This document shows, in pieces, positions 11,306 to 16,944 of a stretch of 64,000 bases of DNA (position 1 is its first letter; every line of letters begins with the position of its first letter). The notes under the pieces are model-generated. The model saw only the letters and a program-made list of their open reading frames with translations. It did not search any database and was not told where the DNA came from. A program made the position numbers and the translations under genes. Origin of the DNA: Podospora anserina (lineage: Eukaryota); the NCBI GenBank assembly GCA_017654855.1, contig CM030335.1, forward strand, positions 868,001 through 932,000, read 5' to 3'.

Positions 11306-13352
11306 AAATTTGAGACCAAGACCCGATGAGAAGACTGCCAAGGAAATCGAGCGGTTCCTCAAACTACACTATGTCCGTTCTAGGCCATACGACAAGTGCA
11401 TGGACATTCTCTATGGACTAGACACACCATCAGGTATGAAGCCCTCGACTCATTGGAGTACCGTATGCTTATCCCCCCGTTCCTATTCACATCCACTGAC
11501 ACATCAAAGACGTGGAGCTTTCTTTTGACCTTTCCGGCTACGACAACTGGACAGTTTCGGAAGAGCAGTTCAAGATCTTCCTAGGAAAGCTCAAGTTCAG
11601 CGATGTGCTCCAATATGTTGGGATTCCAAAAGTCCCGCTCATCCATCGGAAAGCTGCTGTTAGTCGGGAGCCTCTTGGCAGTGCTATTGGGAGAAATGAT
11701 CTCCTCTTTGCGTCTGACTGCCTTCGTGACAAGGGAGTCAGATCCATCCTTGCCGTCATGGTGGACGATGAGCCGACCGTATCCGACAACTCAGAAGCCT
11801 CACGTACCCGACCACACACTGATGAAGCAATTGAAAGATCACTTAAAGGCTTTGGGATCGAAATCTGGGATTGGAAAAAAAACAGATACATGCTCCGAGG
11901 TTATCTGGAATGTTGCGCCGAATGTGCGCGAGGTTCAATTTTACTGGAACGGCAACAATGCCGTCTTGAGAGGCTGGGCTGAGTCAGGCGGACTCAGGAA
12001 GTTGAGCAAGCTAAAGCAGGTGTTTCTTTCCATTGAAGAGGTACGTTGTTTGCGATTACTGAGCTCTCTGAGACAGATTGGAAGCGGAACTAATACCTGG
12101 CGGAGATCAGAATCAGAAGCCCGAACTGGCACCTATGTTATGGACTTTGTCGTGCGCATGAAGGAACTCTGCGCTGGAGTCAAGGTCGAACTACAAGGTC
12201 CTCCGTACCGAAACCACACAGAATTATTAGCCTACCCGCGTACCCCACGGAATGTTGGCAAGCAACAAACCAAAGATGAATGGATCAAGTGCATGAATGG
12301 GTTCCACCACCTCCTCTCCCTAGCCGAGAAAATATTTTGATGTGGAAACCGACGCTGGGGGCTCAAAGACTCTGCGGCAGACTGTGGGCGCTAGCATCAA
12401 AATTGCCCTCATAGACGACGGCGTCGACTACAAGGATCTCCCCAAGCGCACCTTCATCGGCGGACACAGCTTTTCTACTCGAGACAAAGAGCGCAACCTG
12501 ATCCATCCGCATTATGTCTCCATCATGGGCCACGGGACCGCCATGGCTAGACACATCTACTACATGTGTCCAAGCGCTGAAATATACGTCTTGCGGCTGG
12601 AAGACTACCACCACCCAGAGGACCCAAACCTTCGACTGATAGCAGCAAGAAGTGCCGTAAAAGCCATTAGGGCTGCGGTGGGCAAGGAGGTGAACATCAA
12701 TTCCGTGTCATGGACTATCGAACCTACGGGAACAGAAGGAGACCAGAACCTGGAACTGGCAATTGCCGATGCGGCACAGAGAGGTATCCTCATGTTTTGC
12801 TCTGCCAGTGACCGTGGAGCAAAGCAAAACGCCACATACCCTTCCAAGGCCGCCCCCGGAAGAATCTTTACCATCGGTGCAGCATCAGTCTGGAGAAATG
12901 CCGTTGCATCAGTCGGGAGTTTAGATCGGATAACATTCATTTTACCAGGAGAAAAAGTCAGCGTGCCTGGAAGCGAAAGAGCCAGTCTGTCTTTCAGGGA
13001 ACCGTCTGGATCATCGGTCGCCACGGCGCTAGGTGCAGGATTAGCAGCTCTGATGTTGTACTGTGTGAAGGTTCATTTGGTCCTGGCCAAACCCGGGCCG
13101 GAAAAGGAAAGGATTCAAGAGGATTATAGCTTGTTATTGAAGCATGAAATCATGGTAAAGGTCATTTATGGAATTGGCATGACACCTGACACCAAGTTTA
13201 TAAAGGTATGCGGCGTATTTGGAAAGAGTACTTCAGCGGAAAGAGTAGTCCGCAGGGAACGAGTAAGCCCATTTAATAGCAGAGGTTGGGAAGACACTGT
13301 GCGCGAAACTGCTGTAGATAGTGTAGTTCAACTAGCACCCAAGATGACTTGA
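11306..13352 (+). pseudogene. Subtilisin-like S8 serine protease (large intracellular fungal type), 3' part; disrupted by LTR insertions and frameshifts
   Basis: Catalytic motifs IALIDDGVD, GHGTAMA, SGSSVATALGAG. Upstream conserved block (LKLHY, ELSFDLSG, WDWKKTD, YWNGNNAVLRGW). +1 frameshifts at A-runs ~11875-11882 and ~12329-12332. The frame continues upstream across the TSD into 4654-4694. Confidence 0.85.
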
Positions 13353-14033
13353 GGCAGGTAGATTGCTGCAGTGACGGAAAGAATGCTATTCAATTTCGTT
13401 CGACGGCAGGCTTCATTTTTCTCAAGCATGTTGAAACCTGACTGAACTAAAGATAGGGTGCATCAAGGCCGCCGGCCAATAGAACTGCAAGCAGAACGTC
13501 TAAGCTGCTCTTGTTAGGGGCGAATATACTGATTCAATGTCGATGGATAAGTCGGAACAAATGGCTCAATCCACATGATTGGCGTGTACGAGGCACGAAA
13601 AGACAAAAAAAGAGAGCAAGTCATGAAAGCGAGGAAAAGGGCACTGACAGACAGCTTTGGGGAGAAGAGGTGGTCAGTTATACAAGGGGTTAGGGCTCAT
13701 ATCGTGTAGTTCATGTGCGATAAGGTGACACCGTGCGACTGGTCCAGTGACGTAATGAAATCTTCGCACCAACCACCCACCTCTCAGCCAACGCAACACT
13801 CTCGCCGCCGCCGCCGTCAACCTGGAACCTGCTGAGACTTGCTGTGCCCGCCTCGGATTTATTCCGTCATTCGTCTCCATTTCTCTCGATCAAATATTCT
13901 AGATCTCTCCTCACTTTCCGCACACTCAACCTTCTCCCATCTCAAGCCAAGAAACACAACAAAGCTTAATCCGACATCTCCAACGGTTCTCTCCACAGTT
14001 CATCACAACCCCCACACGCTCACCAGCATCACC

Positions 14034-14343
14034 ATGTCTCCTCAAGGCCCCACCACTCAATCGCCCATGATCATGGATGCTGCTGCTGTCCAGCGCCCAG
14101 AGAATGCGCACCTGGATAGCAAGTTGCAGACGAGTCAGCCGGCAACATTTCAACCGATGGGTATGTTTCGGTCATTTCACCCCCAGAATTGGACTGTATC
14201 AACTGACAGGCAAATCAGATACCCAGAAGCCACACGAAGACTCAGAGGTCGGTCTGAGAGGTGGTGATCGCGGTGGCTGCTGCCCTGGTCGTTTCTGCTT
14301 CATCATTCCCTGCCCATTGCCCTGCGACTGCTGTATCATCTAA
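14034..14343 (+). CDS. 83-aa small protein with LRGG motif and Cys-rich CCII C-terminus (exons 14034-14160, 14219-14343)
   Basis: ACCATG context. 58-nt intron GTATGT...ACTGAC...CAG joins two ORFs in frame: MSPQGPTTQ...FQPMDTQKPHEDSEVGLRGGDRGGCCPGRFCFIIPCPLPCDCCII*. Confidence 0.8.
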
Positions 14344-14953
14344 GCGCTCTCAATCCCGTTCTTGATGTCATCACAAGGGTGGACAACTTCAATATGGAAT
14401 TATATTTGTTTACTGGATCGGACTGGGTGGTAATTTTGAGGAAGCTGGCTAGATACAGTACCAGCCATGCATGAGTAATGACATCCCTATTTCTTGCAGA
14501 GACTTTGCTTGACTCTTCAACCTGCATCTTCTTGTAACAAGGACCCATCGATGAATGGGAATAGGGAATCATCCGATGCAGCTTACTACCTGTAACAGTG
14601 CTACTACATGCTCACGAGGTCCATGGGAAGTTCTGGGCAATGCAGGGTTTACTTGGCTGTTGCCAGATCCCTCATTGATACAACCAACAGCCCAAGCAAG
14701 ATGCAAAGTTCGAGTCTCGGCTCATTCTCAGCGTCGGTATGCAACCTATCAACTGTTGCATGACAGTCCCACCAGCCAGTAAGCAAGATGCGGCCCGCAT
14801 GCCTCCAAATTTTGTTGCGACTTTAAGTCCGAGTTTGTGTTGTAAACATGTGCAATCTTTTACTGGTTGAATGCCGCCCATAAAGGTGTCAGATTCACGC
14901 ATTTCACTACCGCTTTTGACCGTTTTTGCACTGAGACTCCGTTGGACATCACC

Positions 14954-16944
14954 ATGGGCCTCTACAAAGAGCTACCGGAATCCCTCACCGAGGTCGACAT
15001 CATCATCGCCGGAGGTGAGACTCTCACCGTTCTAATTAATGACAAGCAGTGAACGAGAGACCTAACTTAGCGGACAGGTGGCACGGCCGGCTGCATCGTC
15101 GCCGCAAGACTAACAGATGCTGATCCCAACCTTTCCATCCTGGTGATTGAGCGCGGCAGCAATAATGACCTGCCCACAATCGCATATCCGCTGTTCTTCA
15201 TGCAGAACATTGTGCCAGGCAGCAAGGCAAGCATTTTTTACCAAACAGCGCCGGAGGAGCAGCTGGATGGTCGAGAGATCATTGTCCCTGCTGGTGGTGT
15301 TCTCGGGGGCGGGTCGTCGATCAACCTGATGATGTACACTCGGGCTCAGAGGTCCGACTTCGACGGGTGGGGTGTGCCAGGTTGGTCTGCTGATGAGATG
15401 TTGCCGTATCTAAAGAAGGTCAGTATTAACCAAGGGATGCTTTGAGAGACTGGATTCACTGACACACTTAAAGCTGGAGACTTATCACGGAGTGGACCAC
15501 AATGGAACGCATGGTCATGATGGTCCCATTAATGTTTCTACTGGCACTTTCACGTCTACCAGGTTCCAAAATGAGTTCCTTTCTGTAGTGGAAGAAACGG
15601 GATGGCCCACAAGTGATGATCTCCAGAACCTGGACTCCTCGAATGGAATTGGTATGTTCTTTGCCAGTTTGCAGCTAAACTCCTATTGACCTGCTAATCG
15701 GGAACACAGGAGCCCAACCCGCCCTCCGCTATGTATCTCCCGACGGTGCACGTCAAGACACCGCGAACCGCTACCTCCACCCGCGCCTCCAATCCGGCAC
15801 CAATCCCAACCTCCATGTCCTCCTCGAAACAAGCGTCATCCGTGTCCTCTTCGACGACAACAAGCGCGTCAGGGCTGTAGAGGTCACCCGCAACCCGCTT
15901 TACCACGACACTCATTCACCCACCCAAACGGTCAAAGCCCGCAAAACGATAGTCATTTCCTCCGGCGCCCTGGGCACACCGCCCATTCTCGAGCGATCTG
16001 GCATTGGCTCCCCCGAAGTTCTCTCCCGCGCCAAAGTCGAAATAGTTGTCCCCCTACCCGGAGTTGGCGCTGAATACGAAGACCACCAACTCTGCGTGTA
16101 CCCTTACCACTCCTCTCTATCCCCATCGGAGACAGCCGATTCTGTTGCCCTTGGTCGCGTAGATCCAGCCACCCTGATCCAAAATAATGACCCCACCCTG
16201 GGGTGGAACACCATGGACGTAACCTGCAAGCTCCGCCCTCTTGCCGACAAAGACATCACCGACCTAGGACCGGCCTTTGAAGCCGCCTGGAACAACGACT
16301 TCGCCAACACCCCCGACAAGCCCCTCGGCATGATCGCCCCCGTAGCCGTTTTCCCCAACAACCCCGACCTCGTTTCCGCATTCGGCCCGGATAAACAGTA
16401 CTTCTCCATCAGCTGCTTCACCGTCCACCCTTACTCCCGCGGCCACATCCACATCACCAGCCCCGAACTGACCTCCCCACCAGACTTCAAAACCGGCTTC
16501 TTGACCGACAAAAACAATCTCGACATCAAAATGCACATCTGGTTGTACAAAACCCAACGTGAAATCGCCCGACGAATGCCCCTCTACCGCGGCGAAGTCA
16601 CCCCCTGCCACCCCCCTTTCTCTCCCTCCTCCAAAGCCAGCGCAGTCCACCTCAACCAACCCCTCAACGGCAAGGTCAACAACATCTCCTACACCCCCCA
16701 AGACGACGCCATAATCGAGCAGCATATCCGTCAAAACGTCAGCACGACCTGGCACTCCCTCGGCACATGCAAAATCGGGTCGGTAGTGGACGAAAACCTG
16801 AATGTGTACGGCACCACAGGCCTCAAGATCGCCGATTTGAGCGTCCTGCCTGGGAATGTGGCTGCGAATACGAATAACATGGCTATGGCGGTGGGGGAGA
16901 AGGCGGCGGGTGTTATTATTGGGGAGCTTGGTCTTGGTCTTTAG
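14954..16944 (+). CDS. GMC oxidoreductase (alcohol oxidase-like, AA3), intracellular, 3 introns
   Basis: Spliced DIIIAGGGTAGC Rossmann motif, GGVLGGGSSIN, WHSLGTCKIG, GLKIADLS. Introns ~15015-15077, 15419-15473, 15652-15709. Confidence 0.92.

Follow-up and report, generated by a model that had tools for sequence, protein, structure and literature searches.

A conserved and transcribed Podospora anserina micro-gene encoding a small protein with an internal LRGG motif and a cysteine-rich C-terminus

Which kind of protein is encoded by the micro-gene at positions 14034-14343 of the Podospora anserina DNA analyzed here (contig CM030335.1 of assembly GCA_017654855.1, positions 868,001 to 932,000; this whole stretch of 64,000 nucleotides is referred to as the window), and what may be the role of its internal LRGG motif and of its cysteine-rich end? 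The C-terminal tails of ubiquitin, NEDD8 and ISG15 read LRLRGG or LALRGG, and their hydrophobic-x-L-R-G-G pattern is shared by the protein family described below; unlike in these modifiers, the motif is internal, is not preceded by a beta-grasp fold and is followed by a tail resembling a membrane anchor. A sequence-only reading of the locus had proposed that LRGG is a ubiquitin-tail mimic cut by a deubiquitinase (DUB) and that the terminal CCII can be prenylated and palmitoylated. As detailed below, the gene and its conservation are real, most of the DUB and prenylation proposal lacks support, and the reading that we favor, with roughly even chances, is a peripheral membrane protein of CYSTM/CYSPD-like architecture, with a multiply S-acylated Cys-rich tail and with LRGG as a juxta-anchor element.

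A spliced and transcribed two-exon gene

The interval runs exactly from an ATG (14034) to a TAA stop codon (14341-14343) and is divided by a short intron (Table 1). Contigs of four public sequencing runs were compared with the window between positions 13600 and 14800. In three of these runs, which stem from three studies (X1, X5 and X11), one contig each skips exactly 58 bases bordered by GT and AG, and a 25-kb contig of a DNA-like run (X17) is collinear with the window and keeps the intron. Since X1, X5 and X11 are RNA-like by guess only and no run is on record as RNA, the intron-less joint itself serves as evidence of an mRNA, and on this basis the spliced transcript on which the sequence-only reading depended is borne out. 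The contigs reach at most from 13821 to 14610 and fix neither the transcript ends nor the strand nor the expression level; within the covered leader (13821-14033) there is no upstream ATG.

The 83-residue product is identical to a Podospora database protein (P0003), which starts with the exon 1 translation, ends with the exon 2 translation and has a single Asp between them; this entry stood in for the spliced product wherever needed. The 100%-identical database entry is from Podospora pseudocomata, and a second accession is listed in the same record. Several database models of homologous proteins (e.g. P0015, P0029, P0039, P0057 and P0059) carry an insertion resembling intron read-through directly after the conserved Met42, and the intron position is therefore taken as shared. 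Moreover, homologues are found at E-values down to 1e-31 in three classes of Pezizomycotina and have an almost invariant tail, which argues that the gene is more than a product of chance. Taken together, these results establish the locus as a genuine, spliced and transcribed two-exon gene.

Some homologues do without the intron, as seen from a contiguous match to residues 13-83, for instance in a metagenomic locus (L002:6001-6216). In addition, the window has a T at position 13890 where all four runs, including the DNA-like X17, have a G, and X17 also differs from the window at 14701; these differences look like strain-level variation rather than editing.

A compact family with conserved LRGG and cysteine core

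The features described in the sequence-only reading are all present in the sequence: the spliced product of 83 residues, the Gln/Pro-rich leader, LRGG (residues 55-58), a second RGG (residues 60-62), seven cysteines and the C-terminal CCII. No signal peptide is present in the product. Its head (residues 1-53) contains seven Gln and seven Pro, and all seven Cys are confined to residues 63-83, that is, to the last 21. Using AlphaFold2 (AF2) with alignments of 36 and 62 rows, neither helix nor strand was predicted in either run (mean predicted local distance difference test scores of 58.9 and 59.8). The confidence was highest for head residues 31-50 (window positions about 14124-14241; block means of 78-81), likewise without secondary structure; this peak covers the conserved Q-P...M-D-x-Q-x-P-H blocks, and the modelled segment may be one that binds a partner.

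Among the translations of the window, no Pfam match was obtained for the micro-gene product, and a Protein Data Bank (PDB) profile search with the family gave no match at E<=10. When the family members were scanned at E<=10, no ubiquitin-family or metallothionein profile of Pfam was matched, and only scattered chance matches appeared. The claim that the leader lacks a ubiquitin fold accordingly holds, both by the missing Pfam match and by the missing AF2-predicted structure. A THAP match (E=0.0017) fell on a wrong-frame open reading frame (ORF) of 88 residues; it lies under the Pfam cut-off, involves intron or out-of-frame sequence, and was rejected. A further candidate was considered by eye for the conserved ...Q-T-x-Q-P head block, namely the zDHHC17/Akr1 ankyrin-binding motif, which reads [VIAP][VIT]xxQP; the spacing is off by one, and this candidate was rejected as well.

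A word-indexed search with the part encoded by exon 2 retrieved 43 proteins, all named 'hypothetical' or 'uncharacterized', from Sordariomycetes (Podospora, Triangularia, Xylaria, Coniochaeta, Trichoderma, Diaporthe, Pyricularia and others) and Leotiomycetes (Phialocephala and Mollisia). An exhaustive hidden Markov model search of 1.84 billion representative proteins with a 36-sequence profile yielded 53 matches at E<=1e-3. Three of these, namely repeat proteins or a fused gene model (P0054, P0081 and P0077), were left out of all counts. The names of ten distant members add Fusarium, Clonostachys, Sarocladium, Plectosphaerella, Xylogone and the Dothideomycete Verruconis, and a scan of metagenome contigs provided 45 further homologue loci. 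The family is thus compact and restricted to Pezizomycotina, with members in Sordariomycetes, Leotiomycetes and one Dothideomycete, and the gene is a conserved, transcribed micro-gene outside the coverage of Pfam. No literature match was found for the locus tags of orthologues, for the CPGRFCF core or for LRGG in combination with palmitoylated fungal cysteine-rich proteins. The legend of Fig. 1 in PMC2804304 includes a Podospora anserina sequence, and an orthologue may already stand inside the CYSTM alignment which that paper presented in 2009.

All 43 closest homologues share R56, G57, G58, R60, C64, P65, G66, R67, F68, C69 and F70, followed in the C-terminal part by P73, C74, P75, P77, D79 and C81. 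Residue 55 is Leu in 32 of them, Met in 8 and Ile in 3, and position 53, two residues before this Leu, is usually hydrophobic (V, M, L or A), the motif variants MRLRGG and VHLRGG being present among family members. C63 is a Cys in 32/43 and C78 in 40/43. The five near-invariant cysteines (C64, C69, C74, C78 and C81) are held at a fixed spacing of 5, 5, 4 and 3 and are flanked by invariant Pro or Gly. The head has conserved blocks of its own (Q35, P36, M42, P47 and H48).

Similar results were obtained for the wider family, for which 96 proteins, some of them near-identical cluster mates, were examined. Of these, 88 contain a CPGx[F/L/C]C core, and each of the 88 has [L/M/I]RGG upstream of it (73 L, 12 M and 3 I), with a gap of 2-7 residues between GG and CPG. 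Among the eight proteins in which the core was not matched by the regular expression, one (P0083) has LSGG and the other seven have LRGG by eye, three of the seven having lost the tail, apparently by frame or model errors. [L/M]RGG was likewise found in 43/45 metagenomic loci, the exceptions being one locus that breaks off at RGG and one row showing a diverged paralogue instead of the canonical copy. The conservation of LRGG in homologues, which the sequence-only reading had left to be checked, is therefore a property of the family. The C-terminal end behaves differently: it reads CCII, FCII, ...IIPL or ...PCPC, with an invariant Cys at -3, and at position 80, where the putative CaaX cysteine stands, 23 of the 43 closest homologues have Cys and the other 20 have Phe. 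A Cys at -4 occurs in only 26/88 proteins and 13/45 metagenomic loci, and prenylation is therefore not a feature of the family.

In two metagenomic loci (L002:4952-5080 and L003:1678-1806), a diverged second copy of exon 2 was noticed on the same strand as the canonical gene, about 0.9 kb upstream of it. In this copy, LRGG is replaced by ...DGG... and four consecutive Cys are present; it was considered as a possible bridge to CYSTM, but a search of both length classes returned no homologues of it, and it could be a decaying duplicate.

CYSTM-like architecture and the possible roles of tail and LRGG

By definition (PMC2804304), CYSTM proteins are small and tail-anchored; they combine a head rich in Pro and Gln with a strand-like element, and a variable linker leads to a C-terminal helix that contains 5-6 Cys, 3-4 of them consecutive, and is followed by an acidic residue. 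According to Giolito et al. (PMC10840359), Cpp1-3, the CYSTM proteins of yeast, are not transmembrane and are attached to the plasma membrane through palmitoylation of their Cys-rich end, and the family definition needs reassessment. The same source describes yeast Mnc1 (YBR056W-A) as 'not strictly CYSTM', because no single helix is predicted for its tail, and as palmitoylated on preliminary data. The CYSTM/CYSPD class (Pfam PF12734) includes yeast Cpp1-3 (YBR016W, YDR210W and YDR034W-B), S. pombe Uvi15, plant PCC1 and CDT1, and human CYSTM1.

Like CYSTM/CYSPD proteins, the Podospora protein is small (<150 residues). In both cases, the cytosolic head is disordered and rich in Pro and Gln, a short element is conserved, a linker is variable, and the very C-terminus is formed by a hydrophobic, Cys-rich segment with an acidic residue conserved close to its end. 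The small size and the Cys-rich module at the extreme C-terminus are kept in the Podospora protein and its homologues, and so is the conserved number of cysteines, C64, C69, C74 and C81 being invariant and C78 nearly so. The acidic residue corresponds to Asp79, which is invariant in the close homologues and is Asp or Asn in the wider family, so that this feature is only partly kept there. At the place of the CYSTM strand element stands hydrophobic-x-LRGG with its 2-7-residue linker, and no strand is predicted there by AF2. Unlike in CYSTM, the tail contains four invariant Pro and an Arg and is not predicted as a single helix, a property which the Podospora protein shares with the Cys-rich C-terminus of Mnc1, the likeness being one of description in PMC10840359. 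The LRGG and the CPGRFCF...PCP.PC core of the Podospora family are not described for CYSTM in the part of the PMC2804304 text at hand.

The family is not filed as a PF12734 member, and its architecture is the same as that of CYSTM. Yeast CYSTM proteins carry a PPxY-type motif or Tyr in their head, and the head of the Podospora protein has neither. Cysteine clusters in a hydrophobic, Pro-containing context also serve as S-acylation anchors in SNAP25, cysteine string protein and Yck2 (C-terminal CC). These cysteine-string and dual-Cys anchors are unrelated to the Podospora family in sequence, and the tail of the latter is far more conserved residue by residue; SNAP25 and Yck2 are mentioned in PMC10840359.

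From this architecture we infer a cytosolic protein of 83 residues, without signal peptide, whose disordered Gln/Pro-rich head would be tethered to a membrane, on its cytosolic side, through the hydrophobic, Cys-rich extreme C-terminus. The anchor would consist of S-acylation (palmitoylation) of several among the five near-invariant cysteines, and neither of a spanning helix nor of a CaaX prenyl group; since the CaaX box is not conserved, a lipid anchor shared by the whole family must be a thioester acylation. By analogy to the yeast proteins, the Podospora protein would fit the widened palmitoylated class discussed in PMC10840359. The hydrophobic-x-[L/M/I]RGG element, placed 2-7 residues ahead of the tail, would act as a juxta-anchor recognition or self-association motif rather than as a protease site, with its Arg facing acidic lipids and its Gly-Gly forming a hinge. 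By CYSTM analogy, a role in stress or metal tolerance at the membrane appears likely. In favour of a CYSTM-like protein, its language-model neighbours in the ESM Atlas are Ascomycota clusters of 534, 109 and 60 members (scores of 0.96, 0.92 and 0.90) with an automatic CYSTM name.

Several observations weigh against this S-acylated, CYSTM-like reading. PF12734 is matched at E<=10 by 0/43 of the closest homologues and, in a second scan, by 0/45 family members (87 scanned in all), and the exhaustive profile search ended with its 53 representatives without reaching the large CYSTM superfamily. The CYSTM hallmark of 3-4 consecutive Cys is missing, at most two being adjacent (C63-C64 and C80-C81), and the pairing residues C63 and C80 are themselves variable. 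The Ascomycota clusters of the ESM Atlas carry their CYSTM name without a common Pfam family; true PF12734 clusters appear only at 0.77, a score at the level of a lead, and the 'CYSTM' name on some newer UniRef entries is automatic too, most homologues being 'uncharacterized'. Across classes, the 20 residues of the tail are almost all invariant, which hints at a constraint beyond that of a mere lipid anchor, such as a specific fold, a metal site or an enzyme partner. Furthermore, the strong conservation of LRGG is not accounted for by the results described here, and membrane binding and acylation are predictions rather than direct observations.

Because the near-total invariance of the tail seems to exceed what a simple lipid anchor needs, both a metal site and a true spanning anchor are kept in play. 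In the former case, the tail would be a membrane-proximal, metallothionein-like metal-thiolate mini-domain for Cu(I), Zn or Cd with C64, C69, C74, C78 and C81 as ligands, a reading that we regard as unlikely while far from negligible. The fixed spacing of these cysteines, each with an invariant Pro or Gly beside it, points in this direction, and an almost invariant stretch of 20 residues would be expected of a defined metal site more than of a floppy lipid anchor; Phe68, Phe70, Ile/Val72, Leu/Ile76 and the Ile-Ile end, however, make the tail hydrophobic, and metallothioneins are largely free of aromatic and bulky aliphatic residues. Neither a Pfam metallothionein match nor a PDB relative was found, and AF2, which does not model metals, predicts no fold. 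Chelation is among the functions proposed for CYSTM, plant CDT1 conferring Cd/Cu tolerance (PMC2804304), and yeast paralogues have been linked to manganese stress (PMC10217909); against this, it is argued in PMC10840359 that acylated cysteines are not free for chelation. The classical CYSTM model, in which the tail spans the bilayer as a tail-anchor and its cysteines line the membrane interior, was the original prediction for the module (PMC2804304), but the yeast prototypes were found not to be transmembrane (PMC10840359). The tail forms the very C-terminus, its Arg lies on the cytosolic side and its Asp close to the end, all of which would agree with such an anchor. A Kyte-Doolittle value of 1.6 over 19 residues, the cut-off applied, is reached by 12/86 family tails, whereas the maximum in the Podospora protein is 1.32. 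Only 11 residues separate the invariant Arg67 from Asp79, no helix is predicted, and four invariant Pro together with Arg67 and Asp79 within 21 residues make the tail a poor candidate for one; we therefore hold a spanning anchor to be decidedly unlikely.

The alternatives derived from the sequence-only reading concern LRGG and CCII. If hydrophobic-x-LRGG were a ubiquitin-tail mimic without ubiquitin fold, cleavage after Gly-Gly by a DUB, a ubiquitin-like protein (Ubl) protease or another protease would yield a lipidated tail peptide of 21-25 residues or, viewed from the other side, a head ending in -GG and freed from its lipid anchor. The motif is indeed as conserved as the Cys core, it extends to the hydrophobic residue at -2 from Leu with the MRLRGG and VHLRGG variants echoing the ubiquitin pattern, and it lies in a region predicted to be disordered and accessible, directly before a variable linker. 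Nevertheless, we consider such cleavage highly improbable, since no ubiquitin-like fold precedes the motif by Pfam, by AF2 on the 58-residue leader or by the PDB search, and bare LRGG is a poor DUB substrate: according to PMC7477763, DUBs require the ubiquitin body as an exosite and LRGG tetrapeptides are hydrolysed 'very poorly'. The conserved blocks within the head speak against a disposable leader, no database member ends at GG, and no tail-only gene was found among them except in fragmentary models; moreover, the CYSTM/CYSPD architecture offers a simpler precedent that needs no processing (PMC2804304, PMC10840359). As the sequence-only reading had tied the cleavage idea to the conservation of LRGG, and as this conservation is real and unexplained, the idea is not dismissed on that ground. 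Prenylation of CCII as a CaaX box, with or without palmitoylation of the adjacent cysteine as in Ras and Ral, appears exceedingly improbable as the anchor. The C-C-I-I end resembles those of CaaX-prenylated Ras and RalA, and a Cys at -4 followed by two aliphatic residues is present in the Podospora protein and in the 26 family proteins mentioned above; by contrast, 62/88 proteins and 32/45 loci have no Cys at -4, Phe takes this place in almost half of the closest homologues (20/43), and C-terminal extensions (IIPL, PCPC) shift the end while the Cys at -3 is invariant. A residue which is dispensable in most of the family cannot provide the mechanism. Of the lipidated cysteine tail that had been put forward, the lipidation is thus retained as the most likely reading, whereas the prenyl CaaX part is not.

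CYSTM/CYSPD proteins are widespread small stress-related proteins, and the present family keeps their architecture with a different, far more rigidly conserved tail and an invariant LRGG. It thereby offers two sharply defined motifs that can be mutated in tractable fungi, namely Podospora, Neurospora, Trichoderma, Fusarium and Pyricularia. If the tail is S-acylated, this would support widening CYSTM to a broader class of palmitoylated C-terminal domains, as urged in PMC10840359. If LRGG is cut, this would be a new kind of processing: the head would be freed or a multiply acylated peptide of 21-25 residues would stay in the membrane, amounting to a regulated membrane-release switch and to a maturation route so far undescribed in fungi. 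If neither is true, a correctly modelled, conserved and transcribed micro-gene beyond Pfam is still gained.

Features and genomic neighbourhood

Table 1. Window coordinates of the micro-gene, of its protein elements and of the neighbouring genes
Feature	Position	Strand	Remarks
Transcribed 5' leader, minimum extent	13821-14033	+	Covered by the X5 contig
Exon 1	14034-14160	+	Met1-Met42 and first base of the split Asp43 codon; Gln/Pro/Ser/Thr-rich head, predicted to be disordered
Intron	14161-14218	+	58 nt, GT..AG, branch-like CTGAC at 14203; skipped in the X1, X5 and X11 contigs, kept in X17
Exon 2 with TAA stop	14219-14343	+	Residues 43-83
Hydrophobic-x-LRGG element, residues 53-58	14248-14265	+	Ubiquitin-tail-like; conserved across the family
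Linker DRGG, residues 59-62	14266-14277	+	Length and sequence vary in the wider family
Cys-rich hydrophobic tail, residues 63-83	14278-14340	+	7 Cys, 4 Pro, invariant Arg67 and Asp79, CCII end
Transcribed 3' region, minimum extent	14344-14610	+	X5 contig to 14610; X1 and X11 to about 14500
Peptidase_S8 (subtilase) ORF	12324-13352	+	Pfam, E=2e-13; ends 680 bp upstream of the micro-gene
GMC oxidoreductase	15071-16944, probably starting at 14954	+	Pfam GMC_oxred_N and GMC_oxred_C; about 600 bp downstream

As indicated in Table 1, a subtilase gene upstream and a GMC oxidoreductase gene downstream share the strand of the micro-gene. Bacterial double-glycine leaders have a layout of leader, Gly-Gly and core, and the leader, Gly-Gly and Cys-rich core of the micro-gene product resemble it. 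These two features would suit the precursor of a ribosomal peptide natural product, with the subtilase neighbour as processing and the GMC oxidoreductase neighbour as modifying enzyme, a reading to which we assign a near-negligible probability. Neither neighbour recurs at the 45 metagenomic loci: using tblastn at E<=1e-3, no homologue of the subtilase or of the GMC oxidoreductase was detected at any of them (0/45), the flanks exceeding 2 kb upstream in 23 and downstream in 23 of these loci, and only a 17-residue low-complexity match to another ORF was returned. As the same search missed the micro-gene, whose short sequence had probably been masked for low complexity, this negative is meaningful only for the large neighbour domains. 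The product has no signal peptide, and the gene is conserved, with a distribution that is neither patchy nor cluster-like. Overall, no gene-cluster logic is seen around the micro-gene.

Two short sites lie 70-140 bp before the first transcribed base covered by contigs, namely TGACGTAA at 13748-13755 and AGGGG at 13685-13689. We take these to be an ATF/CRE-like site and a STRE-like core, respectively; both are short enough for chance occurrence.

HET genes are very numerous in these fungi. A large ORF with a HET (heterokaryon incompatibility) domain was found 1-3 kb upstream of the homologue, in either orientation, at 7/45 metagenomic loci. Because of this abundance, and because several of the loci concerned (L002, L009, L010, L021, L026, L032 and L033) look like the same organisms, we judge this recurrence to be uninformative.

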